DNA of 58,715 nt, the filler included, from Dugesia japonica (taxonomy: Eukaryota): assembly GCA_001938525.1 (NCBI GenBank). It is 5 parts of 5 records of this genome, joined end to end, with 100 filler letters (N's around TTAATTAATTAA, not from the genome) between each part and the next. Parts side by side here need not be neighbours in the genome. Positions count along the whole stretch, not along the records: positions 1 to 12,524 come from MQRL01162220.1; 4 more parts are not named here. The stretch is one strand, 5' to 3'. The stretch's first letter is position 1. Each line of letters starts with the position of its first letter. The position numbers and the translations under genes were made by a program. This document shows positions 1 through 37,599 of the stretch, piece after piece. The notes under the pieces were generated by a model. It did not search any database, was not told the origin of the DNA, and saw only the letters and a list, made by a program, of their open reading frames with translations.

Positions 1-447
1 TGACATCGGTGTCTTTGTTCTATTTTTATTTTCTGGCTGCTGATTGGTCAGATCTTAGAATCCTTATCATACCCTCCAGGAAGGTGGTATGTTTTTTCTT
101 TTTAGGGTCTTAGTTGCACTGGACTATTTTCTTCGCGATTTTTCTTGCTGGAATATTTTCTGACGTCCGGGGCCAGAGTTATCTGTAAAAAACAGATTTT
201 CNNNTAATTTTCGTTTATTTTTTGTTTAAAATTAATTAATTTTTTCTGTATTAATTAATTATTTTTTATTATTGTTTTTCTGGTTGATTCCTTTAAAATT
301 ATTATTAATTTTAATTGTTGATCAATAATGGGTTCATTTCTTCTACACCTTCTTCATTGCATGTTCATTTCTTTTTATTACCACCTTTATGCACTTTATT
401 TCTTTTCTTGATCTATTTTCTACTTTAGTGGGTGTTCCACCCCAACA
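1..447 (-). mobile_element. 5' part of the TGTTGGGG-family element (copy 0), cut by the window edge
   Basis: Ends in ...GTGTTCCACCCCAACA at 447, the reverse complement of the TGTTGGGG terminus. The body aligns by eye with 15150-15659 and with the reverse complement of 2757-3330. Confidence 0.75.
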
Positions 448-812
448 ATAATAATAATAACAATAATAATAATAATATTAATAAATTATAATGAAAATTA
501 ACAAAAATTTATAATTTTACAATATATTTGAATAAAATTAATTTAATTCATTAATTATCAGAACTTACAAATTGAATTGGTTTAGGTAAAAATACTTCTT
601 TGACGAATCCACTTCAAAGAACTTAATCATTATATTTATTTGTATTACCAATAGTAAAAGACCGATAATCTAACCAAACAACATAAATGTATTTAAAATA
701 CTCAAATATAATGAAGGATGGTAAATCAAAATTCATGTTAAATTGACCTTTGCCATTTATTGACTTAACAAATTTATATGGATCAATCATCATTGAAGGA
801 TCTGGAAAATTC

Positions 813-1490
813 ATGGCGATGAAAAATGGTGCTTATATATCAACATGAGGCTGCGTAAAGAATGGCTAAGCCCCAACAGAAAAGCAACTTTTCGAAGAAA
901 ACAAGACCTTCATACTCGAAAGATTATTATGTGCGTGAGGTGGGACTGGAAGGCATAATTTATCACGAACTGGTTGGGCGCAACCAAAAAGCTAATGCGG
1001 AGCTCTACGTTAAACAACTGCACCGAGTTAACAAAGCGATTCAGCCAAAAAAACCGAATCGGCAAAACAGTGATCTTCTGCAGCACGACAACGCTCGTTC
1101 TCACATCGTCAATATGACCAAAGAAGCGATTCAAAAACTCATTTGGGAAGTGTTGCCTCGTCCCCCATATTCTCTGGACTTGGCGCCGTCAGAATTTCAT
1201 CTCTTTCGATAGCTTTGAAATGCATTGAGCGGCGTATTATTCAATAATAGCGTGGAATTGAGCTATTGGTTGAACGAATTCTTTGAGTCAAAACCCAAGA
1301 AATTTTATTGCCGAGGCATTGAGAAACTAATTTAACCATGGGAGGCAGTCACCAACAACAACGGAGACTTTATTGTTGACTAATTCTTTGCAATTTCGTT
1401 AAAAATTCATATTAATTTGTGTACTATTCTTTTATATTGTATTCAAATAAAGTTATTTAAAAAACGCTCATGAATTATTACTCAACCAAA
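813..1490 (+). mobile_element. Mariner (DD34D) transposon, 5'-truncated, with disrupted transposase
   Basis: GDEKWCLY at 815, then LQHDNARSH and PPYSLDLAPSEFHLFR in ORF 862-1212. The frame continues past a TAG to ...NNGDFIVD* at 1383. The right TIR AAAAAACGCTCATGAATTATTACTCAACCAAA is followed by TA. Confidence 0.9.
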
Positions 1491-1780
1491 TAATTAAAAT
1501 TATTTTAAATTTGAATTATTTTATAAGATTTATATTGTTTAATTAATTATTATATCGTAAAATATTATCATTTGTTTTCAATTTTCAATAATAGGTAAAT
1601 AAGAATTGATTTTATGTTATAATCTAAATCGGTTACTATTTAGGAATTTATGACTGAATAAATTGGAAAATAATTCCTAATGTAGACTAATTCTACATTC
1701 CTAATAATTCCTAATCCAAAAATTTAAACAATAAAATTGATCTTCGCATTTTGAAAATAATATTTGAATAAACATGTTTG
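1491..1780 (+). repeat. Old local duplicated segment, uninterrupted copy
   Basis: Aligns with 2623-2756 joined to 6277-6385. Shared strings include AAAATATTATCATTT and CTATTTAGGAATTTATGACT. Confidence 0.75.
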
Positions 1781-1789
1781 AAAAGTAGT

Positions 1790-2610
1790 CAAAAACTAAT
1801 AGCTAAGAGAACATTGCAATCAATCACCAAATTAAATAAGATCTTGAGAAAGATTAATGGCAGAAGAATTGTATTTTATATAAAAGTTGAAATCAAATGA
1901 TTTACCTACAACAGTGAAATGTTTCAGAAAGGATAAAAAATGTTGTACCTGCTTGGGAGAAAAACAATCACCACATGCTATAAGCTGCAGTCAAAAGATT
2001 ATGAAATTAGTTATTACAAGACATAACAAGATTTTGGATATATTATATGTGAATTTAATGAAGAAGAAAAGGATATGATGATAATAAGAGAAGGCATCTC
2101 AGATTTTTATGATCATCATCTGTATCTGGATATTCAAATAATATTAACTCCATTTAGGAAATATATTGTTGATTTAAAAAGTCTATTCGATTCCAATTTA
2201 AGTTATGAAGTTGCAGATCCCAAGAATAAAGTGAAATATAATGAAAAATGAGAAAAACAGGAAAATTACTCGATAAAACATGACAATGCTTGCTGCACAA
2301 CTTTATCATTGAAAACTCTGGGTCTTAGTATATGGAAAATAGGAAATTGTTATAATCGATATGATTTAAGAATACTAGAGTAGATAAATTGCATGATTGT
2401 GAATTTGCAACGATTAAAAGCTTTCGGGATATATAGAAAATTTGCATAGCTTATGCAGAAATATATGAAATCAAAAAAGAAATATATGAGAAAATCGAAA
2501 GAATTAAGCTTGATGATCGTCAGTTGCATTCCAATATGCAGATAGCCAGTGCATACAAATGGGTCAATTTAAGATATTCTAGTACCTTAAGTTTTTTGTT
2601 TAATAAAACT
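1790..2610 (+). pseudogene. 3' end of a non-LTR retrotransposon with a restriction-like endonuclease (R2/R4/NeSL-like)
   Basis: A CxxC...H...C knuckle is followed by TRHNKILDIL, then a degenerate PD...VDLK endonuclease segment and KxxKY. AATAAA lies near 2602. Many stops. Confidence 0.7.
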
Positions 2611-3279
2611 TTGTATTTTTATATAATTAAAATTATTTTACATTGGAATTACATCGTTATTTGATTATTGTGTAGTAAAATATTATCATTTTTTAAATTT
2701 CTAATGATAAGCCAATAAAAGGGGATTTAATATATTAATTCTAAATTTGTTACGGTTGTTGGGGTGAAACTCCCAGTCTGAAGGGTCAAAAGGGAAGAAT
2801 TAATAAAGTAAAGGATTAAATGGAAAGTCAATCAGGAACAAAGCACCTATGATGAAAAAGAGATAGTACATACAGCAATCACAAGGAATTAGTTATGAAT
2901 AACCAGTATGACTAAATTAGAATAAAATTAATAATTAAATAAAAGATTAAAAATACCGAGAAGATGGATAAAAAGAACTTGGATGAATAAATCTAAACCA
3001 CATCGATAATAGTACTCAAAAGAAATTATGAAAATAATAATCAAAATAAAGAAAAATTACGAGTGAAAAACCATTAATTACCAAAAAAATATTAATTAAT
3101 TTTGCAAAAAAACAAAGCAAAATTAGTTACGAATTCGTTTTACACATATAACTGTGCTCAGAAGAATCGCAGAGACGCGTAGAAAGAAAATCTGAGAAGA
3201 ACTATAGACGAAGCATTAAGAGTTGAATATTAGAAAATCTTACCACCATCCAGAAGATTGCCACAGGGATTTGAAGATT

Positions 3280-3460
3280 GGGCCAATAAGAAATCTAAAA
3301 ATAAAAATAAAACAAAGAAATGACAATCACATGTCACACCAAAAATAGCCGCCAAAAGACGTGCCAAAAATCTAAAAAATTGGCATCAGAAAATTTAAAC
3401 TAAAAATAAAGACCCAATAACAAGAATGTCGAGTTGTATCCAAAAAGCTATATAAGCCCC
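3280..3460 (+). promoter_or_regulatory. Element-borne RNA pol II promoter (CCAAT boxes plus TATA)
   Basis: CCAAT at about 3284 and 3415. GTCGAGTTGTATCCAAAAAGCTATATAAG (TATA at 3449) is conserved in copy 2 (GTCGGGTTGCATCGGAAAAGCTATAAAA, TATA at 8625) and copy 3 (minus strand, GCCGAGTTGTATCAGAAAATCCTATAAAA, about 14990). Confidence 0.6.
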
Positions 3461-4679
3461 CCCCATTTTAGATGAAACAGACACAATTTTGAGCATAACT
3501 TGGTTAACACAGTTGATATTACTGACAAAATTGTTATCTATAATCAAAGCAGATTTCATTACTTATAAAGAATTTATAATTACGGACTACGGTGTACCAC
3601 GGAAACAACCCATCATAATTGGAACAGCGAAACTAAAGTGTTTTATTCCGATATTTGTTAAATAAAATAATTTCATATTTAACTCCAAGGAATAAATTTT
3701 CAATCTCTGTCAATTGATTCATCTGTTAGAAAACCCTGTTGCAGTTATTCAAAACCTAATAGTAAGTATAAATGTATAGATTTCGATTATTTATGTTATC
3801 ATTTAATTAATAACCATAATAAATGTGTTAATTCATTAAGTTTTGTTTAATTTATTTAAAGAAAAAATGTATTGAATATTTTCTATTAAAAGAAACCACC
3901 TTTCACTCCACTACTAATTTATATGCAAAAACCATGTCGACCAAGAGCATTCTTTTATCACAATCATAAAATTATGCTCGAGCCAGTATGTACATGCGAG
4001 ATGACGCTAATAGTCATGATGACCCGATCTAGATGAACAGCATGTGTGAATAGAGAAGTTGTATTTTTAATTCTTGTCTTTTAAGTACTCGTAATAGATG
4101 AACTAATAATGTAGCTAGACCCCACCGAGACACACAAACCCACAATTAATGTCATATATCACAGCGAAGGAGGCATGCCAGCAAAGCACATTACATCTAG
4201 ACCTCGATGACAAAACAGATAATTGATACAACTGTATTTTCAACACTTATTAGCAAGGGACACTCAGAAATATTAACGCAATAAAATTTGTGATTAACTC
4301 CTACTTGAAATAAGGTGATAATTCAACCCAGCAGGCCAAACAAATGTTTTTCGATAATTTGATCAGTAATTAATTTCAGAAGTTTACAAATGACTCATAA
4401 TTACTACTATAACATAATAGCATTGCTGAGAAAATGGAGACACGCCCCACTAACTCGTGAGTCGTTAAATAATTGTTCACTGTAAGCGGAGTTGTTACAG
4501 ACAAAGTAAAAATTTGTAAGGGTGTCAATCTCACATTATAATCCACCGGTTGTCATAGCCGTACAAATGAGTCTCATACTTAATAAATCTAAATTATAAA
4601 ATTAGGATTGTTAATAATCTTCAGATTACATCCACTATTATTAATCAGAATAATATTACTAGTGGTGCAATATTTATCC

Positions 4680-5040
4680 TTGTTATTTAATTAAATTCCT
4701 ACTATTCCTAATATTGCTATTAATATTATTTCTATTATTTTTATTATTATTACTGTTAGTACTAACATTGATATTATTATTCTTATTATTATTATCATGA
4801 TTAACATTGTTAGTATTGACGTCATAATTATTATTTTCATTATTTATATGAGTACTCTTCTTATTATTACAATTATTAAAATCATTACTATTATGTTTAT
4901 TAATATTATTATAATAATTATTATTATAATTATTAATATAATTATATACCCTAATAACCATCATTATATTATTATTATTATTACTATGGTTATTATGACC
5001 CTGACCATTAAGAGTATGGGTAATAATAGTACTATGACTA
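4680..5040. repeat. Degenerate (ATT)n/(AAT)n tract inside element copy 1
   Basis: Imperfect trinucleotide repeat. Equivalent tracts sit at the same relative position in copy 2 (about 9980-10225) and copy 3 (about 13380-13790). Confidence 0.9.
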
Positions 5041-5191
5041 GCAGCACCACGTTCATTTATATTAACAGTCTTATTTCGTAACCCCAATATTAAATATATC
5101 AGTACAGTTAACCATCCTAACGTTAACTTCCATATAAACTTCCATTATCAATTACATTTTTTTTAGTAAAATATAGTAATTGAATCATTGA

Positions 5192-5539
5192 ATGTCTCAC
5201 GCAGTTGCTCCGACCAAGAAGGTCCGCGAATTCAGTGAGGACTTGGATATGACCTGGGACGTTTATAAGCTGGCCAAACGTCGCATGGGAGACCGACATT
5301 GCGTTGCCGAAGCCAAAGTTAAGCGTTATAGGAATAAATGTTTGGAATTTAAGAATGAGGCCGAGGAATCTCACAACCAAGAAGAGGTTTGGAAAACCTA
5401 GTTAGCATCTCTCACTGCAATCATCTTGTCCTACCAAGACCGAGAGAAAAAACTGGTTGGTGATATTTTAAGATTACAGAAGGCGATGCCACTCGTACCC
5501 CTCATGGTGAATAAGGGAGTCCAGACATCACGGCCGTGA
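5192..5539 (+). pseudogene. Cargo ORF-A, a ~115-aa coiled-coil protein with a C-terminal KGVQT motif (one in-frame TAG)
   Basis: MSHAVAPTKKVREFSEDLDMTWDVYKLAKRR...VKRY...EEVWKT*LASLTAIILSYQDREKKLVGDILRL...NKGVQTSRP*. Homologous at protein level to 13113-12748. Confidence 0.75.
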
Positions 5540-5789
5540 ACTTTGTTCATTTCTTCACTGATAATAAATAATTTTCTTTTCGACTAATTTTTTAGATGAT
5601 TATTTTATTTATGTTCCTTAATTTACTTTAAGCATAAATAAAATAGAATTAATGTCCTCATATTTAGTGCCTCAAATTATCTTCCCTAACCGCTTGAGAC
5701 GTTGCACCGGATAATGCGTCGATTATTATTAGAGACACCTTAAGTGCCAATCAGATCGTGCACTCTTAAAACATCTTTCACAGTGCGTC

Positions 5790-6050
5790 TGATCGCACTG
5801 ATCTGATCGTTAAAAGGCAGAATGATCTAGCGATTCAAACCAAGGAGTTAGAAGAACAGACTAAACAACTACTTCTGAAGAAAATAGATTTCTTAAAACA
5901 GTACATCTCCGACCTATCGCGTCAAATGGGAACCCGACCTGGGTGCAGTGGGATGGTAATGACGACCAATCGAATTTTGACTTCTTAGTTACAGACCCAA
6001 CCCAGTGGTTAGACCCTGGTCGAAATGTAATTATTGCAATAAAATAGTTT
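5790..6050 (+). pseudogene. Cargo ORF-B remnant (coiled coil plus acidic FDF...PTQWLDPG tail)
   Basis: DLIVKRQNDLAIQTKELEEQTKQLLLKKIDFLKQYISDL, then after a frameshift DGNDDQSNFDFLVTDPTQWLDPG. The same tail occurs in copy 2 at about 11380-11465. Confidence 0.5.
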
Positions 6051-7719
6051 AATTTTATGTTTTGATAAGGTTATTTCTTAACATAATAAGGGAAAAAAAT
6101 GAACCCGAAATAAAGGTGTACGAGTGAGAACCTCCCGTAAAGGTAGAAGGTCAACCGCTCTGCACCAAAGATCTAACTTAGGAGCGTTAGATTAAATTCT
6201 TGAAAGGGGATCCTCTGAGGGCCGTTTTTACCAGGCCAACGTTCTTTTTACCATCAACTCAGGTGGAACCCCAACACTATTTAGGAATTTATGACTCAAT
6301 AAATTAAAATGTTTCTTATGTAGACCAATCCGAAAATTTGAATGAAAAATTGATGTGTAGAAAATATTTGAATAAAAATGTATAAAACTATTATTCTTAT
6401 CGATTTATTTGCTTATGTTTAATTGGATTTACCTTAGATTTTTGTTAAATAACGTTTACCTAAAGCCGGTTTTTTCAGTATTATGTCCTTTAATATAACA
6501 TACATCTTTTAGCATATTTCATAGATTCTCAATAACGAAATTCTCAGAATACAATCGCAAAAAACAAAAAAGGAGAAACGGAAGTTTAAGGAACAAATAT
6601 TCACACAAATGGAGTCTTAAGTTATAGTTTAAAAAATAAAGTACGCCTAAGTAGAAAACGGAAAAGTGAAATTTGAATTTGATTTAGATCTGTGATTTAA
6701 CCATTTGATTCGTAATTAAACGTTTTAAGGCAAAACTATTCTTGTATTTGACATTTATATTAAAAAAAAATTAAAAACGAAACTTAGTTAGTTAACAGTG
6801 AGGATTCTGGTTATCAAGTTAAAGTACGAGATAAGAACAAATCGATACTGTTTAGAAATTTAAATCTGTTTTTAAAAGACTATCTTATAATGAGAATACA
6901 TACAAATTTCCGTTATTTATTATAATATTTTAAAAATATGATGATATCATAATATTTTAGGAATATGTCTCAACCTTTAAACAAAGGCAAAAACATAATA
7001 TATAAAATATATTATCATACTATTTCTAGCAACAGGTATCAAAAGACACTTTTCAAATTTTAACTTAACATTATTCTCGAAGTTTAATAATTTCTCTAGA
7101 ATTATTTTATTGACTATTCATACAACAGTTGTTAAATTAATTCAGCGTTATTATTTTACTCCAGCTCATCATGGATCACAATATGTGAAAATAGTATACC
7201 TATTTCTACCATAAGGTGTCTTTTAACACCTTAAAGTTTTTAAAAATTTGTCTAATTTTAAACCGTTTTACATAAACATGTTAACACTATTTTACAGCAT
7301 CATATCAATTTTAATCTGATTAGAGAATCCCGATTTCAGTTGTAAAGGAAAATGTTTGCTTGTTTTTCGTCATGCTGCATTTCACTATAGATCATTACAG
7401 TGACTTTTTCTACGTGTTTTCTTGTCCAATTCTAATAGTGAATTCAGAACACGTGAATGTTGTTTTTATTCATAAAAATTTGAAAAATACATAGTTGAAA
7501 TTAGCATTGCAGGTAAATAAGCACTAATGAAGAGGAAAATAATTTGAATGTAAGTAGAGGACGAAAGAAAATGAGGTTGTTGGTGGATATTGAAGACGAT
7601 AGTGAAAAAATTAATGAACTGAAAAATATTGAAATTTCTGGTAATTGAACAGTTTGGAAAAAAGTGGAAACAGTTTTCTTTCTTGGTAGACAACCTCTTC
7701 ATACCATTTTTAAAGGTGT

Positions 7720-7825
7720 ATTAGATAATAGAGCAACGGGAACGTGCTTGCAGTGCGAAATGTACACGTGCGGAAAATGCACAGTGGATCAACCATTTAT
7801 TTGTAAAAACTGTGGTATCGATTGA
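7720..7825 (+). pseudogene. piggyBac-like C-terminal cysteine-rich domain remnant
   Basis: RATGTCLQCEMYTCGKCTVDQPFICKNC has the CxxC...CxxC...CxxC spacing of piggyBac cysteine-rich domains. Confidence 0.45.
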
Positions 7826-8992
7826 GGTAAAAAATTATAAAAATGCTGTATTATTGATTACTGTTTTTTTTGTTATAAAGATTGAATAATACAATTATAT
7901 TGGAAGTTCGTTAAGTTAGTAATTTTATAATATTTGATTATCTTTATAATAAAAAATGAAGAAGACAATATTTTGCAATTATTGTTCTCGTTATATTATT
8001 CAAATTATTTATATTTAACTAATATTCCGAAATCCCAAGGGTTTTGTCAGTTATTTGCATTTAAACGCGAAGGTGTCAATAGACACCATTTGATCGAAAT
8101 AGGTATACACCATATCGTGGTAGAAATAGTATTACCTGTTCTGTTGAATCTCTTATTTAAGACTCAATTGTTCTTAGTTGATCATGAAGATTTCTTGCAT
8201 ATTATGAGCGCATTATTGAATTATTAATCTAGGTTTACATAAATATTTTTGAAATATTCATGAAAAAGAAACTCTGATCTTTAATCATTTACTAACGATT
8301 GGTAGAGTGATTAATTTATAGCTGGGAACTTCCTTCTATAACTTGGCATAAGTAACTTGGTCAAAAATGCATAAAAAGATTAAAAACTTTTAAAATAGTT
8401 ATAGAAAAGTGTGATAATAAAATCAATAAACATAGAGAAGGGCAAAATTTGCTTCTCTGAAAAACCAAAACAGCACAAAGAAACGACAATCACGTCAAGT
8501 CAAAAATAGAAGCTCCAAAACGCTATGAAAAATCCAAAGAATTAGCACCTGAACCAATAAAACAGTGTTTTCAAACTAAAAATAACTGTCCAATAACAAC
8601 GATGTCGGGTTGCATCGGAAAAGCTATAAAAACCCTTCCGAAAATAAGAAAAATATTATAATAATCTTACCAATTTTCACAATTATCTCATAGGTGAGTG
8701 TGAATCAATAGCAGAACATTTTAATCACCCAGTATCAACATCTGTGTACTTAAATCATTAATTTTGTGAAATAACAAGTTAAGGAAAACAAGTGGTTTAT
8801 CAGTCAAAACGAAGTGAAAAATCAACGATCAATTTCAGTAGTCTACTAATTAATTAAATCTAGCAAATTAATAGAAACAATTTTTAGACGAAGAAATTAA
8901 CAGACCAGTAGGAGAAATTTAGCAATTCGATCCCGATATTCGTATTATTCCTGTTGCAGAAAAAGAAGATTATAGATAAGTAAGCATGCATT

Positions 8993-9842
8993 TGTTGAGG
9001 TACAGAGTACACAGCATGTACAACACGCAGACAGAGAACATAACATCACTGAAATCGTTCAAATCAAGCAATCCTCAAAGTCAATCCAAAATCAGTCAGG
9101 ACAGTTCAATTCAAATCAATTCATCATCAAACCTCGAGCAGATCCCCAAACATTCATATTGATATTGTTTATCTAAAGATCCCCAAACTTCATATTGATA
9201 TTGTTTATTTAATGATTTGACTCTAATTCATATTGATATTGTTTTAGTTTAATTTTGCGGTGTTTGATATTAATTTGATTCAGTTTATTTTGACTATGTA
9301 TTTTAGATTTAAATTTTATAATTTTCAATCTACTATATATTTTGAGAGTAGTTTTTAATTTGGGTTAAAAGAAAATGGAAATTAATTCGGTGTATTAAAA
9401 GAAATATTATTTTTACAGAAATTTATTTATAATGTAATCAATTTTAAAAAAGAATTAATCGAAAAAGGTAAATTTGTAAACAAATATTAAGTTTTATGTA
9501 ATTAATGTGAGTGTATGTGATTGGCAAATTCAGTATAAATACTGAACTAGTTCGTTGTAAATTCAGACATCAGATCTGCGGCACCAGTTCAGATAATTAA
9601 AATTTAGCGCTTTGTATTATACTTGTATACATAATAATATAAAGTTTTTACCAAAAAGTTGTTATTCATTTATTTAGATAAGAAAATCTACAATAAATAC
9701 CTATATTTATAGCATTGAATATTGATTATATAATATTGTATTTACATACACAACTAGTGCGGGTTTTTGTTTGTTATCTCTGTTTTGTAAGTCATTTTAC
9801 TAACGAGCACTTGCATCATACCCGGTTAAGGTTAGGGCTTAC
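8993..9842 (+). mobile_element. Probable nested solo LTR inside copy 2; right boundary uncertain
   Basis: Starts TGTTGAGG. Contains ~36-bp tandem repeats (GATCCCCAAA..TTCATATTGATATTGTTT, 9140-9245), GTATAAATA and AATAAA. The layout resembles 43675-44631. Confidence 0.4.
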
Positions 9843-10553
9843 GTAAAAATGATTAATAATGTACTTATGCCTAAATTAGTGTTTCAGTAACAGCTGTTTT
9901 ATCGGTCTAAATCGCAATATTGAAATTGATTCACTTTTACATTAACTGGTAGCATTATTTTTTGTGATATATGATTCCTATGAATATTATTATTGATATT
10001 ATTACTATTATTAGTATTATTATGTCTATTTATTTATACCATTATTATGATTATTATTACTATGACTATCATCATTATTAATATCTCTTAATATTATCAG
10101 CATCATATTGCATTATCACATTATTATGATTATTATTATTTTTATTTATTAATATCAGTACTTTTATTATTAGTATTGTCACTATTACTATCATTATTCT
10201 CATTATACTTATTAATATTCTAATACTTGGGTTCTCATGGCCACCACGACTTCAATTATTGGCAAGGACCGTGCTGAATTTTTAATAGGTGCCAATATAA
10301 GTTCGATACCTCTTCTAATATGAACTCCCATTTGCACGGTCTATTAATTTTAGTGTTGATACAACTCCCAATTTCTCTTGTTATATAACAACGACCGGAA
10401 TTACCGTGATTTCCCCTAGCATCCATATGGCTGGTGGCAATAGTTATGCGTAAAAATTAAAATCAACAATATTTTCATTGGTGAATTTGCCTCAAAAGAG
10501 TGACTTAGTAAGATTAATCAAAATTAGCTTTTAATCGCATTATTATTTAGATT

Positions 10554-10736
10554 ATGCCATTGGAGTTGAGCAATGCGTTACGCATGATTTGTAAACAGCG
10601 TAAGACCTCGCGATTGAGACAATTTGTAGCACATTTACTGTCTCATGGTAAGACAGAACATCCCGACGATACTGATCTCAAGTGTTTCATTGAGATGTTC
10701 CTACTAGAATCTCAGGTGGATCTTGATGAGGAATAA
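10554..10736 (+). CDS. Cargo ORF-C, 60-aa protein of unknown function in copy 2
   Basis: Intact ATG-to-TAA ORF with coding-like GC content and an acidic tail, preceded by TTTAG (possible acceptor). No homolog recognised. Confidence 0.35.
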   Translation: MPLELSNALRMICKQRKTSRLRQFVAHLLSHGKTEHPDDTDLKCFIEMFLLESQVDLDEE

Positions 10737-10922
10737 TAATGCATCCGCATACTGTAATCTCAATTACCACTATGGTTTGATTTAAATAAAGATAAAAAAA
10801 TATGGTTTAATCTTCACTCTAAATTCATTATATCATAACGTGTTATTCTTTCATTATTATATTATGAATCATCTCATCACAACTTAATATATTTAAAATA
10901 CTGTTAGAAATAATATTACTAG

Positions 10923-11317
10923 ATGGAATTCGTATGGGAGACATTATTCGATAAACGCACTAATAGAGTAGTTTTTCGCAGGTATTGGAATCCTTATGAT
11001 CAAATTATTACTCTAATTTGTAAAGTATAGATGCGGAGAACGAATGAGAGTGGGCTGTGGCAGGGCACCAGGCCTTTTACCAGTGGACTGGACCTGATCG
11101 TACGCGAAAGGTTCTTCACCGCAATACAATCATAGATCCGGTAACTAACAAGGTTACTAGTGTGTGGTGAGACGGTTCTGTGTTTATACCCGTGTCGACC
11201 GCACATTTACCACCGAATACTAGATTAGTTGCAGACCTAGGTAACACTCTATGGGACCTGAGAAACATTGCTGCAGGCGGTGAATCAGAAAATAACGCAC
11301 CAAACAATGTAGCTTAA
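10923..11317 (+). pseudogene. Cargo ORF-D remnant in copy 2
   Basis: MEFVWETLFDKRTNRVVFRRYWNPYDQII, then after a frameshift EWAVAGHQAFYQWTGPDRTRKVLHRNTIIDPVTNKVTSVW*DGSVFIPV...NNVA*. GC-enriched island. Confidence 0.4.
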
Positions 11318-12294
11318 AGACGATAATTAATTTTCTAAAACTTTACGGTTGTTAGGTAATGTGGCATGTCTCAGCTAAGATGATACTGACGATTCGGTGT
11401 TGTTCGACTTTATACCAGAAGGGCCTACCCAGTGGTTAGACCCGGGTAGTTTAGATGAATTGTAATTACAAACTAATATAATTATTATTAATATTTCGTT
11501 TATTTATTTGACAATTGAAGTAATAGGGAAATATATGATCACAAACCAAAGGTGTACGAGTGTGAACCTCCCGTAAAGATCGAAGATCAACCTCTCTGCA
11601 CTGAATATCTAATTTAGGGACATTAGATTAAATTCTTGATGGGGCCCCCGAGGGCCGTTTTTCCCCGGCCAGCGTTCTCTTTCATCATCAACTCAGGTGG
11701 AACCCAAACACAAATAATATTTCGTAGTTATTTAATTATAACATTTTATTTAAAAGGTAACTGAAACTAATATAACGTTAATAGAATATAAGCTTAATAT
11801 TAATAATGCGCCAATATAAACAAAAAATCGATTGAGAAAAACTTCACCGAAATTTATTGGAAAATGATATGAACATGGCCCTCCATATTTAGAGTACATA
11901 TCTCCTAGTTATTCGATATTGCCAGTGCAGCGATACATGGGAATAATTTTTGGATTTTTGCATCTTTTATGTTTTTCTTGTAGAGAATCATATTTTGGTT
12001 TTAATGATATTTTCATGATTTTCCGGAACATTTCAATGATGCATGTTGATATAAGTTGTTCGTTTTTTATTTGTTAGTTTTTAAAAACTTAATCTTAATA
12101 AAAATTTAAAAGGAAAGTATTTTTTGATGGAACTGTTAGATTTTTCACTGTCGACGGTAAAGTTGGATCTGTACTGAAGTTAGTTAAATTTGTTTTATTT
12201 AGTTTTTTGTTTTCAATGGTTCCAGTGAACCTTTCGTCTAGGAATGTTTCAAGCTTTTAACAAACTCAATAACATATTTTTTCAGATTTTCTAA

Positions 12295-12338
12295 GCTGTA
12301 TATATACTATATATGATACATCATGCGTTTAAGGGTTA
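12295..12338 (+). mobile_element. piggyBac-like right terminus
   Basis: ...GATACATCATGCGTTTAAGGG followed by a TTAA target site. Confidence 0.4.
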
Positions 12339-12446
12339 AAGTAGTCCGTTAAAGCGAAAAGATGTAAAAGAGTCTGTTTAGCAAGTTACGGGTATATTAA
12401 CATATATATAAAAAGTATTGTAATTGAATATAAATATTATATATAT

Positions 12447-15400
12447 TGTCGGGTAAACACGACACTTGAGCTCTATTCAATTTGAATATAACTAAATATC
12501 TGACTGAGTTCAATAAGGTGCGTCNNNNNNNNNNNNNNNNNNNNNNNNNNNNNNNNNNNNNNNNNNNNTTAATTAATTAANNNNNNNNNNNNNNNNNNNN
12601 NNNNNNNNNNNNNNNNNNNNNNNNATAAACAAACATCAACTAAGGAAATAATGAATGCTATCAGCATCGAAGTTATTAGAAGTTTAATGATAATAAAACA
12701 TAGACCAAGACTAAGGTACACAAAATTTTATTTAAAGGATAGAGGGTTTAACCACGAGAAGGGGACTGTGTTTGGGTGCCCTTAGCAATCATAAGAGACT
12801 CCAAGTATGATTTAGTCTTAAGAAGCAGGATATCTTTGACAAGTTTATTTTCACGGTCATGGCTGGACCGGATGATTTCAGCGAATGATTCTACTTGTGC
12901 CTTCCACGCTTTCTCTTGTTCCTGTACAATTTTCATCTCCTCGTGGACGTTCGTACACTAAGTCTTATATCGTTTCACCTTAGCGTTGGCCGTGGCGGTT
13001 TCTGCTTCCCATCGCCGCTTAGCTAATCTGTATAAATCCCAGGTAAGCTCTCTGTCTTTGCTATCCTCCCTTAATTTCTTAGTCGGGGCCTGTGGTCGAT
13101 TCAATGACGAATGCACTGAAATATAAACATTAAAAGGAATGGTTCATCTTACCAGATGTTTAGATCTATCGAAAAACCCCGTAGGATGTCGTACCACATC
13201 AATACCGAGCGGGGTTATCACATAGTTTAGTGCCCACGTTACTCCATGTTATTATTATTTTAATTTTTAGAAGAAAGCAACTAAAACAATAGCCAATTAT
13301 TACTACCAGAATTTGTTGGAAAGAATGACAATAGAATGACAAAAGAAAGACAATCTATGAATTTTGTCGATTGTATTGACTATAACTGATAATGCCAAGT
13401 GTGATAACGATAATTTTGATTTAGGATACTAATAATAAACCGATAATTATCAATATCAATGAGGATATTAATTACATTAAAGTGACAACAACGGTAACGA
13501 TAATACTGATTTTAATAATGTAGTTTTAATACTAATAATAATAATAACAATAGTATTACTAACAATGCCATCGATAATGAAAGTGATACTAATAGTAATA
13601 ACAATAACATTAATGGTACTATGGATATCACCACGAGTGATGTCACTAGCATGATAATAAGGGTAATGATTTTAACCGTTATAATTTCAGTAATTCTATC
13701 AATAATAGGACTACCATTAATAATAATAATGCGAGTACCATTAATGTTAAAAATAGTAATAATAACCATAGTACTCCTAATATCAGACTTGTAATGAACA
13801 AGTTAAGAAAGCCACAATCCTATCAATTATGAGGAATTTAAATTTCTACTGGGTTACATAATTCAATTTTCCGCGCCGTGTGGTTACTTAGGAACATTCC
13901 ATGGTGATATGATTATGGAAACTTTATTTGGGTTGGTGTGTGTGGACAGCGTTCCGTGGTAGGTGTGTTTGGCCGACGTGAACTCAACAGTCAGTATTAT
14001 ATAACAACTCACTTATCAGAGCATGCACACGCTAACTAATNNNNNNNNNNNNNNNNNNNNNNNNNNNNNNNNNNNNNNNNNNNNNNNNNNNNNNNNNNNN
14101 NNNNNNNNNNNNNNNNNNNNNNNNNNNNNNNNNNNNNNNNNNNNNNNNNNNNNNNNNNNNNNNNNNNNNNNNNNNNAATTGATGAAAAACATTAGACATC
14201 TCAATGGATTTTTTCTTTACGGATTTTCGGGTAATTTGTGGTTTTGGTTAAATAAATGATCATCATTACAGTGTTTTTCTCCTTTAATTGTTTTGAATGT
14301 TTGAATTACGGTCACAAAAATAAACCGATTTATTTTTCAGTTTTGGGTACAGATTTCTGTATTCTTAATTAAATAATGTCTAATTTAGATTAACACTCAA
14401 ATATCTCGCTACTACTTATTCAATTTACGGAGTGATAGAGTGGGAATCATCTCCATTTATTTTGAGTTAGAGAGCGAAATTTTGTTATTTAAAAGGTGAC
14501 GTTGCGTCTAAATTGATATGTTTATGTGAAAAGAAAATTAACATCAAAATCTTCATATATAAGAATTTATTACCATAAATAATATATAATTTTATCATAA
14601 TATAACATTTATCATAAACAAAATAATATTTGACTTTTTATTAGTGACTAAAAGATTTCTGCAACGGGTTTTGGTTTTGTTTTGAATAGTTAATTTACTT
14701 GGCAATTCCGGATTTGGTTCCTGGGATCTGATATTCCGTTATTTTCCTTTTTCTTTAAAGAAAACGAAATTAACCACACACAAATAGGAATTTAAATTAC
14801 TCTAGTTTTCCGATATATCACGACAAATTGGTGCGCGATAACTAGTTATTAAGTTTCGTTTGAGAATTGAACCGTTAATTTTCTTGACCATGAGTTAATT
14901 TGGACGATTCGCAATTAAGTTTTCACTAATTATTTTACGTACGTGGATATGCAAAAATTTGTAGTTGTTTCTGCTAAAATCATGGGTCCTTTTATAGGAT
15001 TTTCTGATACAACTCGGCAGCATTCTCATTGGCGAGTATTTTTATTTCAAAACTTTAGAGTTTCATTGGTGCCAGAGTTGTAATTTTGGAATTTTTGTAG
15101 AGTTTAAGAACTCTGATTGGTGAGTATTTTTAGAGGGCCATGTGATGGTTTCTTCTTTGTTTTATTTTTATTTTTAGGTATCTGATTGGTTCGATCTTGG
15201 AACCCCTACAGCACCTTTCCGGATGATGGTAAGTTTTTTCCTCTGAAAGTTCTTAATGACCCTTGTCTTTCTCTTCTGGAATTTTTTTGTGCCGTCGTTC
15301 TGTGATGTTTTGATACAAAGTTATTTGCATAAAACGGATTTTGACTTCATTTTTTTTTATTTTTGAAATTAAATTAATTAATATTCCTTGATAATTAAAT

Positions 15401-15659
15401 TGTTGATTAAATAATTTTCTTATTCATAAATAATCATTTGATAATTTTTTCTTAATTGGATATCTTGACGGGCTGGTCAATTTATTTGAATTTATTATTG
15501 TCAGCTTTCTTCATTTAATTCTTGGTTTACAACTTAATGGTTGTTTTTCTGTCTTCTTGCGTATTCCCTTGGTAGTAAATGTTTGGGTTTTTATTGTTTT
15601 TCTTGATGGATTTTGAGTTTGGCTTTGTTGCCTTTCTGGGCATGTGTTTTACCCCAACA
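12447..15659 (-). mobile_element. TGTTGGGG-family element, copy 3 (crosses a scaffold spacer at 12525-12624)
   Basis: CCCCAACA terminus at 15659, promoter at about 14990, TGCAAC at about 14660, AAT tract and an ORF-A homolog. The candidate far terminus TGTCGGGTAAACAC at 12447 has flanks TATAT/TATGT but lies across the spacer. Confidence 0.7.
12748..13113 (-). pseudogene. Cargo ORF-A homolog with KGTQT motif (one in-frame TAG)
   Basis: HSSLNRPQAPTKKLREDSKDRELTWDLYRLAKRRWEAETATANAKVKRYKT*CTNVHEEMKIVQEQEKAWKAQVESFAEIIRSSHDRENKLVKDILLLKTKSYLESLMIAKGTQTQSPSRG*. Preceded by TTTCAG (candidate acceptor). Confidence 0.75.
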
Positions 15660-15724
15660 TATGTATTGTGTGTTTTATAGTATATTCTTGATTTTAATTG
15701 TAATTTTATATATCAGGTTTCTCT

Positions 15725-15905
15725 TAACTGATATTACCGATCATATTTTCTCGAGCATTTCTTAATCCTTGAGAATCATTTTCTCGAATTTGAAATCTCT
15801 GTTCTTCACGCATTTTCACACGATAATTTTGCATATATTCTGCTCGTCTGCGTTTTCTTTCAGCATTATCTTTTGCTTCTAACTTTCTTTTTGGTGGATT
15901 TTTTT
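15725..15905 (-). pseudogene. Helitron-like RepHel N-terminal remnant
   Basis: PPKRKLEAKDNAERKRRRAEYMQNYRVKMREEQRFQIRENDSQGLRNARE resembles the charged N-terminal repeats of animal Helitron proteins. Confidence 0.35.
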
Positions 15906-16386
15906 CAAATATATTTCTTTTAAATGGTTTGACTGTCTTTTATAATCAATTATATTGTCCCTTAAACGGTCAAATTTTTAGGTAATTGATATGGATTAGT
16001 TCCAAGTAGTAAGGAGAGTAGGATGAGAAAGGGGAGAGTTATACTTGATGAAAAAAGTTAAAACAAAGAAGTATAGAAATTGAGAATGACTTTATTAAAT
16101 GAAAATTATTTTCATAATTAAAGAATTTAAGAACCACTGTAAGCAATAATTACAAAGTTTATTTAATTAATTAAAATAAAAAAATTTATGAAAATATTTT
16201 AAAAAAAACATTAAAAATTTCATTTAAAAATAAATAGTATTAAAAGAATCAAACAATTTTTATGATAAACAAATTAAGGATATTAATATCATTAATTAAA
16301 TTAAAAATATTTACAGTGATATATATTTTACAATTGCAATTATTGCGAGAATAATTGTTGTACGTAACCATTGATCGTTTTTCGAA

Positions 16387-16502
16387 ATTCATTAAAATAA
16401 AAGCTTCGATTAATATTTGTTTTTTTGGTTTTGATAATAATTCAGAATTATTATCAAAAAGAAAAAAAACAAATTTTGACTGAAGCTTTTATTTTAATGA
16501 AT
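16387..16502. repeat. ~116-bp fold-back palindrome
   Basis: Arms ATTCATTAAAATAAAAGCTTC / GAAGCTTTTATTTTAATGAAT around the centre TTTTGATAATAATTC-A-GAATTATTATCAAAA. One arm is similar to 54640-54690. Confidence 0.85.
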
Positions 16503-17842: not shown

Positions 17843-19036
17843 ATGAATAGATCCAGAAAAGAAAAGCCATCGAAACATTCGCCATTTGTTGAGAAACTTA
17901 AATGCAGGCGTAGTACGAGAATTCAAAATCAAAAGTTTGAAGTTTTTAGAAAATGATTGAAAAATATGAATTTATTGTAGTGAAATAGATGGCACTTTTC
18001 AATCTTCTAAATCTTTAGTTATGTCAACTCCTAAAAAGACAAATAGACACACCGGGCCATTGCATGATATCTCACATGAAACTGGGAGTGTTTTATCAGT
18101 ATTTAGGTTTATTTGTAAGTACTTATTAATCGATGAGTTTAGAATTCATCTCTAAAAAGATATCATAGAAATTATGATCCTGATATTGAAATTAGACAAG
18201 TAAATGAGCGTCTTAGTAAACGTTTAAGTAATAGTTGGGCTGATCAATCTATATTAAATGATGAGGAGGAGGAAGATTTTATTAAATATTCTGAAAAACT
18301 GCGGAAACATCAAGTGATAAATTAATACGTGCTCGTAATAATATTTGTTTCTAGAAAAATATTAAGCTTGAGGATGATGTTGATGTTTTGGCTCGTCGTC
18401 AAAACGATATAGATAAAGGAAAGTCTAAACAATGTTACAAAAATTATGTTTATGAAATTGCTAAGGAACGTCGAAAACCTTTTCAGCCTCGAACACCAAA
18501 TAAATTTCTGAAAATGAGCAGGCGAGGTTGGGATGGCTTAGTAAGAAAATGGAAAAAGCATATTCATGCATGGAATGAGCCGAAGTTTGTGTTTAATACC
18601 CAAACCTTAACTTTTTATTTTAATTTTTAGATTCGAGGAACTATATGCAGCAGGAATAGAAGTTGACTGTTGTAATAGTGATGTGGCATCCATCGCGTCT
18701 TTTAAGGAGAGTTTGATTGAGTTTGACGATAACAAAGATAGTATTAAAGAAGTATTTAGTGAAGAAGAAGAAACATTACAAGTAATGTTTTACAATCTAG
18801 GTATATTTTTATGTTTTAGGGAGCAAAAACTAGAAAAAGAATATTATCTCCTATTTTAAAAGAGGAATTGACAGATGACACTATTCAAAATTCATTGTAA
18901 GTCGTTCAAAAATATTGATATGTTATAATTAAATTTTAGACCTAAATTAGTTGATCTACATAGTGGATTGACAAATGATGCAGCAGCATTAAATATGAAT
19001 TCAAATAAGCGAATTAAATTATCCGAGTTCAAATAA
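17843..19036 (+). CDS. SLBP: Histone RNA hairpin (stem-loop) binding protein, 7 exons, 311 aa
   Basis: Exons 17843-17934, 17981-18098, 18143-18313, 18355-18584, 18631-18781, 18820-18896 and 18940-19036 splice at GT-AG introns into a stop-free 936-nt ORF. RNA-binding domain LARRQNDIDKGK..CYKNY...PRTPNKFLKMSRRGWDGLVRKWKKHIHAWNEP with TPNK; upstream SWAD motif; acidic segment after the domain. Confidence 0.92.
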
Positions 19037-19402
19037 TAATTATTAAATATTCGATGTCTATTTATATAATTGTATTATTTCGTCATTCTTATTCGTTTAT
19101 TTGTTTGAAAATTTTATTAAACTTTCGTTATTATTATTGTAATTAACCTAGATTTTAAGATGTCTTTATTTTGCAATTACTAATCAAGTAAAGTTAAAGT
19201 CATATGGATGATTGTTACATGTAAATTGTAAATTAAAATTGAAAATATAGTAACATTTAAGGTTATTATATTTTAACAGTAAAATTTTTATATTGCAATA
19301 TCGAAATTAAATTTTCATCAGAAAATGGTTATTAGCAATATTGCCAAAAATTAATTGAGAACTTTGTTTTAACCCTATCAAAGGTCAATTCAATTATTTT
19401 TA

Positions 19403-19927
19403 TCTACAAGAACTATAGAATTTCGAACTACACTTGGGATTTTCCACCATTCTACCGGATTCGACCCCGAATGGACCCTCATATTCGAGTAATTTTACTG
19501 TTTAGTCCTCAATGTCTACCCAATCGATAGTAGTATGCTGTCTTATTTTTGTATTTCCGGCACAATCTGCGTCGATGGGACCACCCATTGTTATGGCTTC
19601 TGCCAATGTCTTCCTGATTTCTGCCTTTAATGAAACTTGATTATTTATTTTTAACTTTCCTGTTCTAAAAGCATCTTGACGGTCTTCTGGTTACACATTG
19701 GCTGATCTTGGTATAAGTTTTGCTGACAACACTGTTGTACGACTATGAACATCACAATAGTATTCAAATATTGCTTTTTGTACTTGATACTCGGTTTCTT
19801 GATAAATATAATATTTAGCTAGTTGGGCAACCTGCAATCTTGTAGGATACGCTTCCCTACATTCCATTGCATCTATTAGCGAATAAATTCCTGCTGGGCT
19901 AGGATTATGACAATCGTAAGCAATCAA
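19403..19927 (-). pseudogene. Chuvirus-like / herpes gB-like (class III) envelope glycoprotein, N-terminal ectodomain, degraded
   Basis: Single frame with two internal stops: LIAYDCHNPSPAGIYSLIDAMEC...YIYQETEY...YYCDVHSRTTVL...QDAFRTGKLKI...DADCAG...DWVDIED*TVKLLEYEG...KCSS. Motif order matches chuviral G (LIxYDC, SLxDxxEC, YYCGMHSH, RxHxTG, CxG, WxxVxxQ). Confidence 0.7.
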
Positions 19928-21666
19928 CCTATTGGTTTGCCTTAATTTATCCATCATCATTAGTATTGTTTGAGTAGGATTCTCTAATCCTCTCATTGTC
20001 TGCTGTAATCTATTTGCTGGTTCGAAGACAAGTATTTCGTTATTTTTCATATTAATTTCATACCTTGGGGCTTCGCTATTTTGGCGTGTTTGTTCGTTCC
20101 ATTCGTTGGAATTAACTATCCATTATCAAATATCGTTGACAGCTTTGCAACTTTCTGTTTTAATTTTCTGGTACTATTTGCACTTAATAATGAATTCCGA
20201 ATAATCATTGCCAATGCTGTTAAAGCCCGTCCATTTGTAACGCATTTGGCAGCTAACGTATGTATTGTGTTCCTGGTATTTTCATCAGGCAATTTCCTTG
20301 GTAACTTTCTAATGATTTTTTGTGCTTGGATCCCATCGTCAAACTTTTTCAATTTTTAACTCAGGCTTTAGTGACCTGATTAATTGCAGAATTTTAAAGC
20401 ATGTGTCTGACATGGCTGGTTCATTCTATACATCACCTTGGTCGATTTCATCAATTATAGCATCTAATGCCCTATATCGGATTTTTCTGGCAACGGTTCC
20501 GCCCACCGAATCGACATTAGTATTCTTTTTTGGTCTACCTCTCTTTTGTCAACCATTTGTTATCTTCTCTCTGCTGGTTCTCTAGAAGTTGATTCTCCCA
20601 GATTGTTACCTTGTACGTTTCTGATATTACTTGTATCTCTAGAGAATATTTTTCGTGGTATATTCGGTAACTCGACCGGTTCTGCCTCATCCAAATCCCC
20701 GGGATTCCTTGATTTTGTTGAGGAATATTTATTTCCTCCTCATGCACTATTTGTAATTCTTTATTCTGTAAATCCTCAGATACTTCTGGCAATCACAACA
20801 TAGTCCAATGGCGATCCCATGGCTCCACCATCAACACATTGACTAGTGTAATTTTAGTTGGTAAACAGCCAACATCAACTTGGTTACCCCAAATTACTAT
20901 CCAAAATGTTTGCGGGTATGTTATTTCGATATCCGTTTTCAGCTTCAGTACCCTTGTAAAACAAGAGTATATCTTTATTTGTGGTACCACTTCACCTGGT
21001 ACTCTTATATCGACTATAAACGATGCCTGTCTGGCTGCATCATGCCTTATGGATTCTCCATTTTTATAATTATCATTCGAATTTCATTTTGATAACTGCT
21101 TGGTTTATCAACCAGTGATAATATCAATGGCATTACCTCTTTTAAAACTTCAGTTGAGATATGTAACGTCAACATCCAACTTAATATGCTTTTAATGTCT
21201 TCATCCCATCTTGGGACTGAAAATATCTCATTTCCTAATTTCTGTATAATAGAGTGAGCGTCTTGTAACTTCCATATGTCCCATAGCAAATGTGCTATCT
21301 GGGGTGATAGTAGCTACTTCCACTACTTTCTCTTTAGCTTGTATCTTGGTTTTTATCTCAAGTAATATTCCACATAACAACCGATATTTATCTATGTCTA
21401 ATTTTTTGTCATACAAATACAGATCAAATACTCTGCGTTTGATCTTTTTCAGATAAGCTATTATTTTAGCTACTGGCTCTTTTACATCTAATTCCAGAAG
21501 TACTCTGCCTCTTTTTGGTAATTGTATCTCCAACTGAGCCTTTTTAAAATCCCAGTCGCACTACATTTTTTAACCAATTTTTCTGCTTATTTCAGTAATT
21601 TCTTTATAATAAGTCTTCTTGGGTCTGACTTTAGATAATATCTGCATTATATTATCTAACTTTTCC
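19928..21666 (-). pseudogene. Degraded polyprotein of unknown domains preceding the env-like segment
   Basis: Chain of intron-free, frameshift-linked ORFs (21533-21228, 21289-21047, 20990-20793, 20792-20535, 20352-20116, 20050-). Includes an AT-hook-like KRGRPKK at about 20530-20548. Cut by the scaffold spacer at 21667. Confidence 0.55.
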
Positions 21667-21766
21667 NNNNNNNNNNNNNNNNNNNNNNNNNNNNNNNNNN
21701 NNNNNNNNNNTTAATTAATTAANNNNNNNNNNNNNNNNNNNNNNNNNNNNNNNNNNNNNNNNNNNN

Positions 21767-29700: not shown

Positions 29701-29835
29701 ATGTAGCAAAATCTTTCATTCTGTGCATCCAATCTTAGGCATCTTGACTGAGACCATCAAAGAAACTTGGTTTCGGAATTAACATTTCTTGCGTTTTCTG
29801 AGGCAAATTAGAAAAAATCTTCACTCTTGCTAACA
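26784..29835 (-). mobile_element. Second decayed Ty3/Gypsy element (gag-PR-RT...INT), truncated within the integrase
   Basis: Gag has two CCHC knuckles (28878-29132); protease LLNSGAS (about 28590); RT SSIDLGHAYYQV and LPFGL (27829-28083); integrase YFWPD, IIDRFSK, ILSDRG (26784-27340). Confidence 0.85.
27345..27850 (+). pseudogene. Opposite-strand Gypsy gag-protease fragment inside the second element
   Basis: VKCLLDTRAQINVISL protease motif at about 27775-27825 on the + strand. It sits where the RT C-terminus and RNase H of the minus-strand element should be. Confidence 0.6.
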
Positions 29836-36700: not shown

Positions 36701-37164
36701 TTTCTTCTATTGTCTGAAATAATTTTACAACTATTCCATCTTGAGACATCTATTTTAAGTATTCTTTGGCAACGATATAAATCCGATTCTATAATAACTC
36801 CATCATCCACAGTATTCAATATTGATCCGCCAACTTGAATATTTTTCTCTTCTATTTCAATGAACTCTTGTAACACAATATCTTCTTCATTAAGTTCATC
36901 AATTATTTCGAAACTGTTCCAATCATCTTATTCAATATTGATTGCATCTTCTTATTGTACAATATTGGCTGTTTCCTCTTCTTTCGGTTCCAAATTGTTG
37001 ATTTCTTTATCGTCATCTTCAATTATTTCAACAGGTTCATCTTTGATTGTTATTTCTTCAACGTTATCTTCAATAGCAATTGTTTCAATGGGTTCATCCT
37101 TAACTGTTATTTCTTCCAACTTAATTCTCTTATTTACTGGTGTTTCNTAAAACTCATTATTCAT
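33712..37164 (-). pseudogene. Protein-primed family B DNA polymerase (Polinton/Maverick/adintovirus type), near full length, frameshifted
   Basis: Acidic N-terminus with IQVGG; SGKSYIPT...AILNIKNNDNYCF; PFVIYADFES (exonuclease I); RDHDHFTGKYIGAA (endoVII-like); FHNLRGYDLH; LYIDINNLYGWALSQ; KLLNNSLYGK; DDKR...PYGHY at the C-terminus. Confidence 0.93.
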
Positions 37165-37599
37165 CTGTCTATTTAATATTGATTTTAATATAAATTTCTT
37201 ATTTGTAGTAAAACATGACAAGTGTTTCTTATGTGTCCTATAAAAACTTAAGTAGTCACCTAAACCTTACAATTAGGACACACAAAATAATTTTTTCCAT
37301 AAAACCATTGGCCATAGTATCCTTTCATGATACTATGACAGTTACCATTGTGCCGCGCACTAGCGCAATGGTTGGTGTATAGTTGACACTGTACTAAAAT
37401 AATTATGCGATTTTAAAAAAAGCATAACAAAATAATGATGCGATTTTAATAATAGCATGATAAAATAATGATTTTAATAATAATTTTATTAATATTTTTT
37501 CTTTTAAAAAAAACATGAAAAGCATTTATCAAGACTACCCAAAGTATATATATTTAGACTTCAAAAAAACTTTAAATTTCCCCAACTCCAAAAAAAGCA

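Follow-up and report, generated by a model that had tools for sequence, protein, structure and literature searches.

Four related TG..CA units in Dugesia japonica DNA: probable solo long terminal repeats with an orphan reading frame that evolved under purifying selection

We analysed a 58,715-nucleotide stretch of DNA from the planarian Dugesia japonica (assembly GCA_001938525.1), hereafter the window, in which five parts are joined end to end by runs of 100 filler letters and positions 1 to 12,524 come from MQRL01162220.1. The window has an A+T content of 71.5%, and its single host gene, that for the histone stem-loop binding protein (SLBP), is surrounded by many mobile elements in decay. Composition, short introns, (AAT)n tracts and the fragments of DNA polymerase B and fusion protein are in keeping with a dugesiid planarian host. 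By self-BLAST and segment alignments, four related pieces are present, here called c0 (447-1, minus strand), c1 (2757-6276, plus strand), c2 (8460-11710, plus strand) and c3 (15659-12447, minus strand). A preliminary description had presented them as four copies of one element with a single order of parts, and this order is real, in that the homologous blocks, a CYGTTGCAG motif and an (ATT)n tract follow one another alike, but only c1 has both family ends, whereas c0 is cut and c2 is truncated at its 5' side. The self-BLAST matches pair 3074-3497 of c1 with 15398-14948 of c3 (68%), 3297-3459 of c1 with 8460-8635 of c2 (70%), 5997-6277 on the 3' side of c1 with 11424-11711 of c2 (76.5%), and 12-243 of c0 with 15154-15385 of c3 (69%).

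With its 3,520 bp, c1 is likely a solo long terminal repeat (LTR). It begins with TGTTGGGGT (2757-2765, plus strand) and ends with ACCCCAACA (6268-6276, plus strand), and the two termini form a perfect 9-bp inverted repeat. The repeat ends there, as identity beyond it is 11 of 20 positions, and the best local alignment between the 5' and 3' sides is at shuffle level (z 1.8). Within the window, TGTTGGGGT occurs four times against 0.19 expected by chance, and all four occurrences are at termini. Moreover, a paralog of both c1 flanks, lacking the insertion, lies at 1499-1691 (plus strand), and the filled site is exactly 4 nt longer than this empty one. Judged at the level of sequence, the empty-site comparison fixes the borders of c1, and it suggests that the insertion made a 4-nt duplication, imperfect in sequence, with CGGT at 2753-2756 on the left and CTAT at 6277-6280 on the right (plus strand; two of the four letters differ). 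Target-site duplications (TSDs) of 4-5 bp had been named as marks of both LTRs and Ginger elements; the 4 nt of c1 stand by empty-site length, but no copy has a perfect TSD, the flanks of c3 (TATAT and TATGT) being read across a gap of N letters.

Unit c2 (8460-11710, plus strand) is 5'-truncated and is without ORF A, the open reading frame (ORF) described below. It carries a TATA box at 8625, GTGAGT at 8694, CTGTTGCAG at 8951-8959, GTAAG at 8980, an (ATT)n tract at 9985-10219 and a 3' block at 11424-11710. Nested within it at 9433-9692 (plus strand) is an unrelated TG..CA element of 260 bp, which has a TATA box and a perfect ATAA duplication on both sides and shows high depth in read run X8. 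Upstream of c2, one DNA contig omits 7021-8138, a segment that includes a Cys-rich piece near 7740-7820 and is likely a separate DNA-transposon insertion. Unit c3 (12625-15659, minus strand) has its 5' terminus at 15659, a promoter block at 15398-14948 in which two repeats that bear CCAAT lie 88 nt from each other, CCGTTGCAG at 14667-14659 and the tract at about 13800-13420. An N gap (12525-12624) stands between c3 and a 78-bp terminus of TG..CA type at 12447-12524 (minus strand). This terminus had been taken as the family's right end of c3, an assignment that was not confirmed, since its likeness to the c1 and c2 ends is not significant (z 2.7 and 1.6) and it lies past the gap. Given its flanks and a loose resemblance to the 5' end of c3, it may be c3's own 3' end, or else the start of another element. 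A TTAATTAATTAA spacer between fixed runs of 44 N, found at 12569-12580, 21711-21722 and other positions, marks artificial scaffold joins, so that distances across such joins are not real. The fourth unit, c0 (1-447, minus strand), is represented by its 5' 447 bp, cut at the window edge, and belongs to the highest-copy subfamily. Inside c1, c2 and c3, no long direct repeat was found except the tract and a 36-bp tandem repeat.

Near the 5' side of the units lies a U3-like promoter block of about 420 bp (3074-3497 in c1, plus strand), with CCAAT boxes, a CGAGTTG motif and a TATA box at 3449. Its segment alignments gave z scores of 34 for c1/c3, 23 for c1/c2 and 10 for c2/c3, in agreement with the CCAAT/TATA block described beforehand; the block is conserved in all three of c1-c3, and c0 carries its upstream half only. 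At the opposite side, a U5-like 3' block (5997-6276 in c1, plus strand; 76.5% to c2) is common to c1 and c2 alone, and at about 285 bp by self-BLAST it is longer than the roughly 165 bp first given. ORF A, in turn, is common to c1 and c3 alone (segment alignment z 32), and the remaining middle is not alignable, save for a weak c1/c2 match that immediately precedes the 3' block (z 5.8). Shortly before the 3' end, c1 and c2 share a GC-richer block (5952-6020 and 11379-11447) with an exact CCCAGTGGTTAGACCC core, which may represent a cis signal or a short exon with coding content.

Between promoter and tract, the CYGTTGCAG motif recurs: it is found four times in the window against 0.15 by chance, and three of these lie inside c1-c3, where the TATA box precedes them by 288, 327 and 330 nt. 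In c1, the acceptor-like CTGTTGCAG together with a donor-like GTAAG (3762) makes up a set of putative splice signals at 3736-3766 (plus strand). While the acceptor-like site is position-conserved in c1-c3, the donor-like GTAAG is found in c1 and c2 and is absent in c3. Two details of the preliminary description were thus located where expected, namely TTGCAG followed by GTAAG in both c1 and c2 (GTAAG at 3762 and 8980) and AG/GTGAGT after the TATA box of c2 (at 8694). GTRAG occurs in the units at chance level (6, 8 and 2 seen vs 5.0, 4.7 and 3.9), and the finding of two GTRAG within 30 nt of the CYGTTGCAG motif is suggestive (p 0.04 each). The degenerate (ATT)n tract (4718-4996 in c1, plus strand) keeps the same strand and the same order in all three units c1-c3; (AAT)n tracts are also present elsewhere in the window. 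We rejected as unsupported the idea that this tract encodes a membrane protein or, in antisense, a protein rich in Asn, given that its six-frame stop counts equal the shuffled expectation, and synonymous changes in it are not enriched.

As the preliminary description stated, no reverse transcriptase, integrase or transposase is seen, with no Pfam match to these in the 15 of 57 stop-free stretches (45 or more codons) that were scanned; the longest of the 57 has 153 codons and is low-complexity. A search for a pre-spliced copy, as expected of a self-regenerating LTR intron, gave none of nine tests above shuffles. Rfam over positions 1-16000 returned a single match (E 0.22, far below cutoff), and the end motifs had no matches in metagenome and viral contigs.

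Alone among the short ORFs of the units, ORF A carries coding evidence. The c1 copy (5192-5539, plus strand) has about 115 codons with an internal TAG at codon 70, an acceptor-like site at 5166 and AATAAA at 5563. The c3 copy (13115-12748, minus strand; feature 12748-13152) also has one internal TAG, at a different codon, so the frame is intact in neither c1 nor c3, which does not bear on further genomic copies. It is preceded by a 37-nt intron-like GTAAG..TTTCAG stretch (13152-13116) and is followed by AATAAA about 15 nt past the stop; in both copies this signal falls within 30 nt, though AATAAA is common anyway in AT-rich DNA. The two copies align gaplessly over 110 codons, with 48% protein identity and 54% DNA identity. 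In this frame, pN (nonsynonymous) is 0.354 and pS (synonymous) is 0.85, which is saturated, and the differences by codon position are 48/32/73 (p 2e-4). In contrast, the control blocks gave 21/20/28 (promoter, p 0.44) and 5/3/4 (3' block). Identical residues number 53 of 110 against 28.6 +/- 3.3 expected, a count matched by none of 5000 permutations. Judging by these substitution patterns, ORF A is shown to have evolved under purifying selection as the subfamilies diverged. Of the small cargo genes claimed for the units, ORF A is thus supported in c1 and c3, and the other short ORFs are not. In fact, the preliminary description overstated completeness and splicing, and it understated an orphan ORF under clear purifying selection.

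As regards the ORF A product, hydrophobic residues make up 92% and 85% of one heptad position in the two copies, and the predicted model has a long helix over residues 15-98 (mean pLDDT 79, pTM 0.41). Our guess from this model is a coiled-coil-type accessory factor that might dimerise with a host or element protein. Homologs were found neither in a 5.8-billion set, at near or longer lengths, nor among 1.84 billion representatives, nor in phage records. Likewise, there was no Pfam match under E 0.04, and the best PDB sequence match had an E value of 0.86.

Four read runs were mapped on positions 1-12520 at 85% likeness, with c3 and the SLBP gene outside this range. Run X1 is DNA, and X14 and X17 are oligo-dT (about a quarter of each read); run X8, in which all 30 bins are covered, is DNA-like and was excluded as RNA evidence. 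Exact-match contigs of X1 have a depth of 8-13. Summed X1 depth is 26,141 at c0, 983 at the c1 promoter block, 57-125 over 3345-4598, 823-2,197 over ORF A and after, 4,646 at the c1 end, 1,980 at the c2 end and 2,092 in the bin holding the 12447 terminus, which amounts to rough single-copy equivalents of 2,500, 90, 5-12, 80-210, 440, 190 and 200, respectively, on the understanding that summed depth is no copy number and that reads are cut at the tract. These depths suggest that the family is large, its ends being conserved and its middles varying, with hundreds to thousands of relatives at the ends. DNA contigs that skip 5184-5838 or 9884-10510 represent variants without ORF A or without the tract, and the ends of these skips are not GT..AG. 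Unit termini were not among the 22 of 1,707 loose-end rows viewed.

From all this, we infer that the units are probably solo LTRs that derive from giant Ty3/Gypsy elements similar to Burro, the LTR itself containing a coding exon. A full LTR-internal-LTR element would have been inserted by its own integrase with a 4-nt duplication, and recombination between its two long LTRs would, following textbook LTR biology, have deleted gag-pol so that one LTR stays; we propose that no enzyme gene is present because of this LTR-LTR recombination. The first 0.7 kb, in which the CCAAT and TATA boxes are present, would function as U3, so that a transcription start near +720 would be expected, with R plus U5 making up the remaining 2.8 kb. 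From there, ORF A could be read from a short, spliced LTR-internal mRNA by way of the preceding acceptor and the following AATAAA, its product presumably serving as an accessory protein of the element. The c1 and c3 copies themselves are now decayed, with one stop each, and the two poly(A) runs, mapped on positions 1-12520, gave next to no reads. The mosaic relationship, by which c1 shares ORF A with c3 and the 3' block with c2, is likely the outcome of recombination between subfamilies.

We favour LTRs because the inverted repeat is of the TG..CA kind and only 9 bp long, without a long terminal inverted repeat (TIR), because the empty-site paralog is shorter by exactly 4 nt, and because the layout is that of a U3 promoter, a long transcribed part and a conserved end. 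The promoter is conserved with z scores of 10-34 in c1-c3 when most of the middle is unalignable, which argues in the same direction, as do the clean short solo LTR nested in c2, by which solo LTRs are seen to form here, and a fragment of Monjiviricetes-type fusion protein (a weak match) that lies 4 kb away. Lastly, the unit size fits what Burro implies. In the sections of PMC6431247 that deal with Burro, the internal part reaches up to 25 kb, the whole element is longer than 30 kb and there are thousands of copies, and a mononegavirus-type env region is described in the polyproteins; subtracting internal from total lengths gives LTRs of about 2.5 kb or more.

Several observations nonetheless weigh against solo LTRs with a coding exon. 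A primer-binding site (PBS) or polypurine tract (PPT) adjoins none of the six termini in the window, unlike at the ordinary Gypsy element at 26.6 kb, and no copy is thereby shown as part of a full element; such a lack is, however, what both solo LTRs and whole non-autonomous elements would be expected to show. The c1 duplication matches in two of four letters, and that of c3 looks 5 nt long. An R plus U5 of 2.8 kb is also unusually long. ORF A is absent from c2, has an ATG in c1 only, with its first codons out of register between c1 and c3, and is skipped by a DNA contig (5184-5838). The fold of the 3' block surpasses shuffles in c1 (z -3.0) and fails to do so in c2 (z +0.95), and in a structure drawn from these two sequences 2 of 41 pairs are compensatory. 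The giant solo LTR encoding a protein, one of the two readings offered at the outset, is kept as the better fitting, with selection on ORF A on its side and the missing PBS and PPT at six termini against it.

The RNA data point the same unfavourable way. Depth over 3345-5016 is 0 in X14 and at most 0.05 in X17, that in the ORF A bin is 0.87 in X14 and 0 in X17, and no RNA-supported joint is found among 15 of 107 joint rows. With near-zero depth in both runs and no RNA start or end seen, the predicted junctions and start found no backing, and the spliced leader with a micro-exon is likewise unsupported, for want of a joint among those rows and with a donor in only two of three copies. Only 4 of 539 and 2 of 79 oligo-dT reads are 99% alike to the stretch, which holds no positive control gene, so these copies are quiet in the X14 and X17 libraries, a result that says nothing on the whole family. 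Transposons are de-repressed in PIWI-knockdown animals (PMC8532177). A further step, that the LTR itself is a complete spliced gene, in which U3 provides the promoter, a 2-kb R holds the introns as well as a coding exon, and a poly(A) signal lies past the stop, so that every solo LTR would be an expressible orphan coiled-coil gene, seems to us possible but rather doubtful.

Alternatively, each unit could be a whole non-autonomous element, moved in trans by a Gypsy- or Ginger-type integrase that recognises the TGTTGGGG ends, with the middle as exchangeable cargo under its own promoter. The six termini without primer site or polypurine tract would suit this, as would ends that are high-copy and conserved around middles that are low-copy and different, and the DNA-contig variants that lack ORF A (5184-5838) or the tract (9884-10510). 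Ginger1 and Ginger2/Tdd, as characterised in the relevant parts of PMC2836005, have TGT termini, 4-bp TSDs, lengths of 2.6-7 kb and introns, comparable to the termini, lengths, putative TSDs and putative introns of the units. However, the same parts of that paper give them TIRs of 40-270 bp (Ginger1) and of about 50-180 bp or more (Ginger2), as well as an integrase-like transposase, compared with 9 bp and none found in the units, and on this TIR comparison the Ginger-like reading failed. Their targets are given there as CCGG/CCGT for Ginger1 and RTATAY for Ginger2, and the c1 empty site, the single informative one for this comparison, reads TACTAT/CTAT, unlike CCGG/CCGT. Since no transposase remnant turned up in the stretches scanned, and since a high solo-to-full ratio in a gappy short-read assembly equally predicts missing primer sites, we regard non-autonomous elements as unlikely.

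Another origin to be weighed is that of deletion or recombination hybrids of giant elements, in which a shorter LTR start, internal leader pieces and an LTR end were brought together once inserted, and ORF A would be an internal accessory gene. Mosaic homology among the copies, imperfect TSDs and an ORF A start that is not conserved would agree with such hybrids, and Burro has upstream accessory ORFs and tandem repeats, going by the passages on it in PMC6431247. On the other hand, the two ends of c1 have no direct repeat between them, and independent deletions would not give the collinearity of c1 and c3 from the 5' TG to ORF A (2,435 and about 2,550 nt), given that the ORF itself differs by about 46% in DNA; we therefore hold a hybrid origin to be quite unlikely. 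Least credible, and in our view highly improbable, is that the common order is partly coincidental, with related LTR ends lying around unrelated insertions and microsatellites and with no unit-level function. Unalignable middles, the nested insertion in c2, the (AAT)n tracts elsewhere in the window and tract open frames at chance level could be cited for it, but the position-conserved CYGTTGCAG, a tract of the same strand and order in three of three copies, a selected ORF A in two of three and c1 flanks that rejoin across the full 3,520 bp all tell against coincidence.

Protein-coding sequence in or overlapping an LTR is familiar from mouse mammary tumour virus (MMTV; sag), human immunodeficiency virus (HIV; nef) and foamy viruses (bel/bet), in which the ORFs sit in U3 on the upstream side of the promoter of that LTR, and the transcript comes from the other LTR or from an internal start. 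In contrast, ORF A lies downstream, at 1.7 kb from the TATA box, which would allow a lone LTR to express it. Large retrotransposon derivatives (LARDs) are non-autonomous LTR elements with long LTRs and no enzymes. Cassandra, a terminal-repeat retrotransposon in miniature (TRIM), is noted in PMC10886601, where this element is touched upon, to have a gene-derived piece in its LTR. The units are similar to LARDs and TRIMs in the lack of enzymes and in having either long LTRs (LARD) or a gene-derived LTR piece (Cassandra), but differ in being single and without a direct LTR pair, whereas LARDs and TRIMs carry paired LTRs together with a primer site and a polypurine tract.

Closer at hand is Burro/GYPSM1 of dugesiid planarians, which, to go by its description in parts of PMC6431247, has in common with the units the implied LTR size, the thousands of copies, accessory ORFs and tandem repeats, to which the mononegavirus-type fusion fragment in the window can be added (a weak match, below cutoff). 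The difference, compared by description only, is that the additional domains of Burro belong to the polyprotein or to an accessory ORF upstream, with no LTR ORF mentioned in those parts. The plant Ogre/Tat lineage, also covered in places by PMC6431247, likewise has very long LTRs (1.9-6.5 kb in Ogre) and extra ORFs without assigned function, but there the extra ORFs are internal. Our literature search found no description of an ORF inside a planarian LTR, though Grohme 2018, Lee 2026 or Repbase/Dfam may describe the LTRs in question.

If our reading is true, a selected ORF downstream of an LTR promoter would turn solo LTRs into mobile mini-genes that outlive their element, and an unfamiliar protein would be added to giant planarian-type retroelements. 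Solo LTRs are treated as non-coding promoter relics. Should the LTR itself be a spliced gene, retrotransposon deletion would spare the accessory protein, and hundreds of cassettes would exist genome-wide, some of them probably intact. For Burro1, help to stem cells via an accessory domain has been reported (as cited in passing in PMC13465017). Units that never form pairs around gag-pol would instead constitute a new kind of non-autonomous integrase substrate, and if a deletion hybrid merely carries ORF A as an accessory ORF of its internal part, our finding would be ordinary.

Elsewhere in the window, the host SLBP gene is at 17900-19030 (plus strand; Pfam SLBP_RNA_bind, E 9e-23) and has short introns. 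It is followed at 19400-21650 (minus strand) by broken frames that end in a stretch resembling a Monjiviricetes fusion glycoprotein (E 0.0034, below cutoff), and for the upstream frames there was no database homolog, atlas match or PDB match. We rejected this env-like fragment (19.7-21.6 kb) as proof of Burro on these same negatives, and it is not joined to any unit. The decayed ordinary Gypsy at 21800-26780 (plus strand) has pol fragments (rve, E 2e-4), a short LTR and, at about 26618-26628, a polypurine tract, and its ends are unrelated to the family; it continues into a second pol of inverted orientation (26780-29800). Two diverged copies of Polinton/Maverick-like fragments of a protein-primed DNA polymerase lie at 34100-37300 (minus strand) and 40800-44800 (DNA_pol_B_2, E 4e-12). 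A Mariner-type transposase fragment lies at 830-1380 (plus strand; Transposase_1, E 8e-6), and a second was recognised by eye at about 50150-50830 (minus strand). The stretch 54516-52300 (minus strand) starts with TGTTGGG and has an (ATT)n tract, CCAAT boxes and degenerate repeats; we rejected it as a fifth copy (z 4.3 and score 37 for the top one among 100 segment pairs), and it may be a different long LTR. Finally, an imperfect palindrome of 116 bp, similar to a miniature inverted-repeat transposable element, is found at 16387-16502, and part of it is repeated at 54630-54751.

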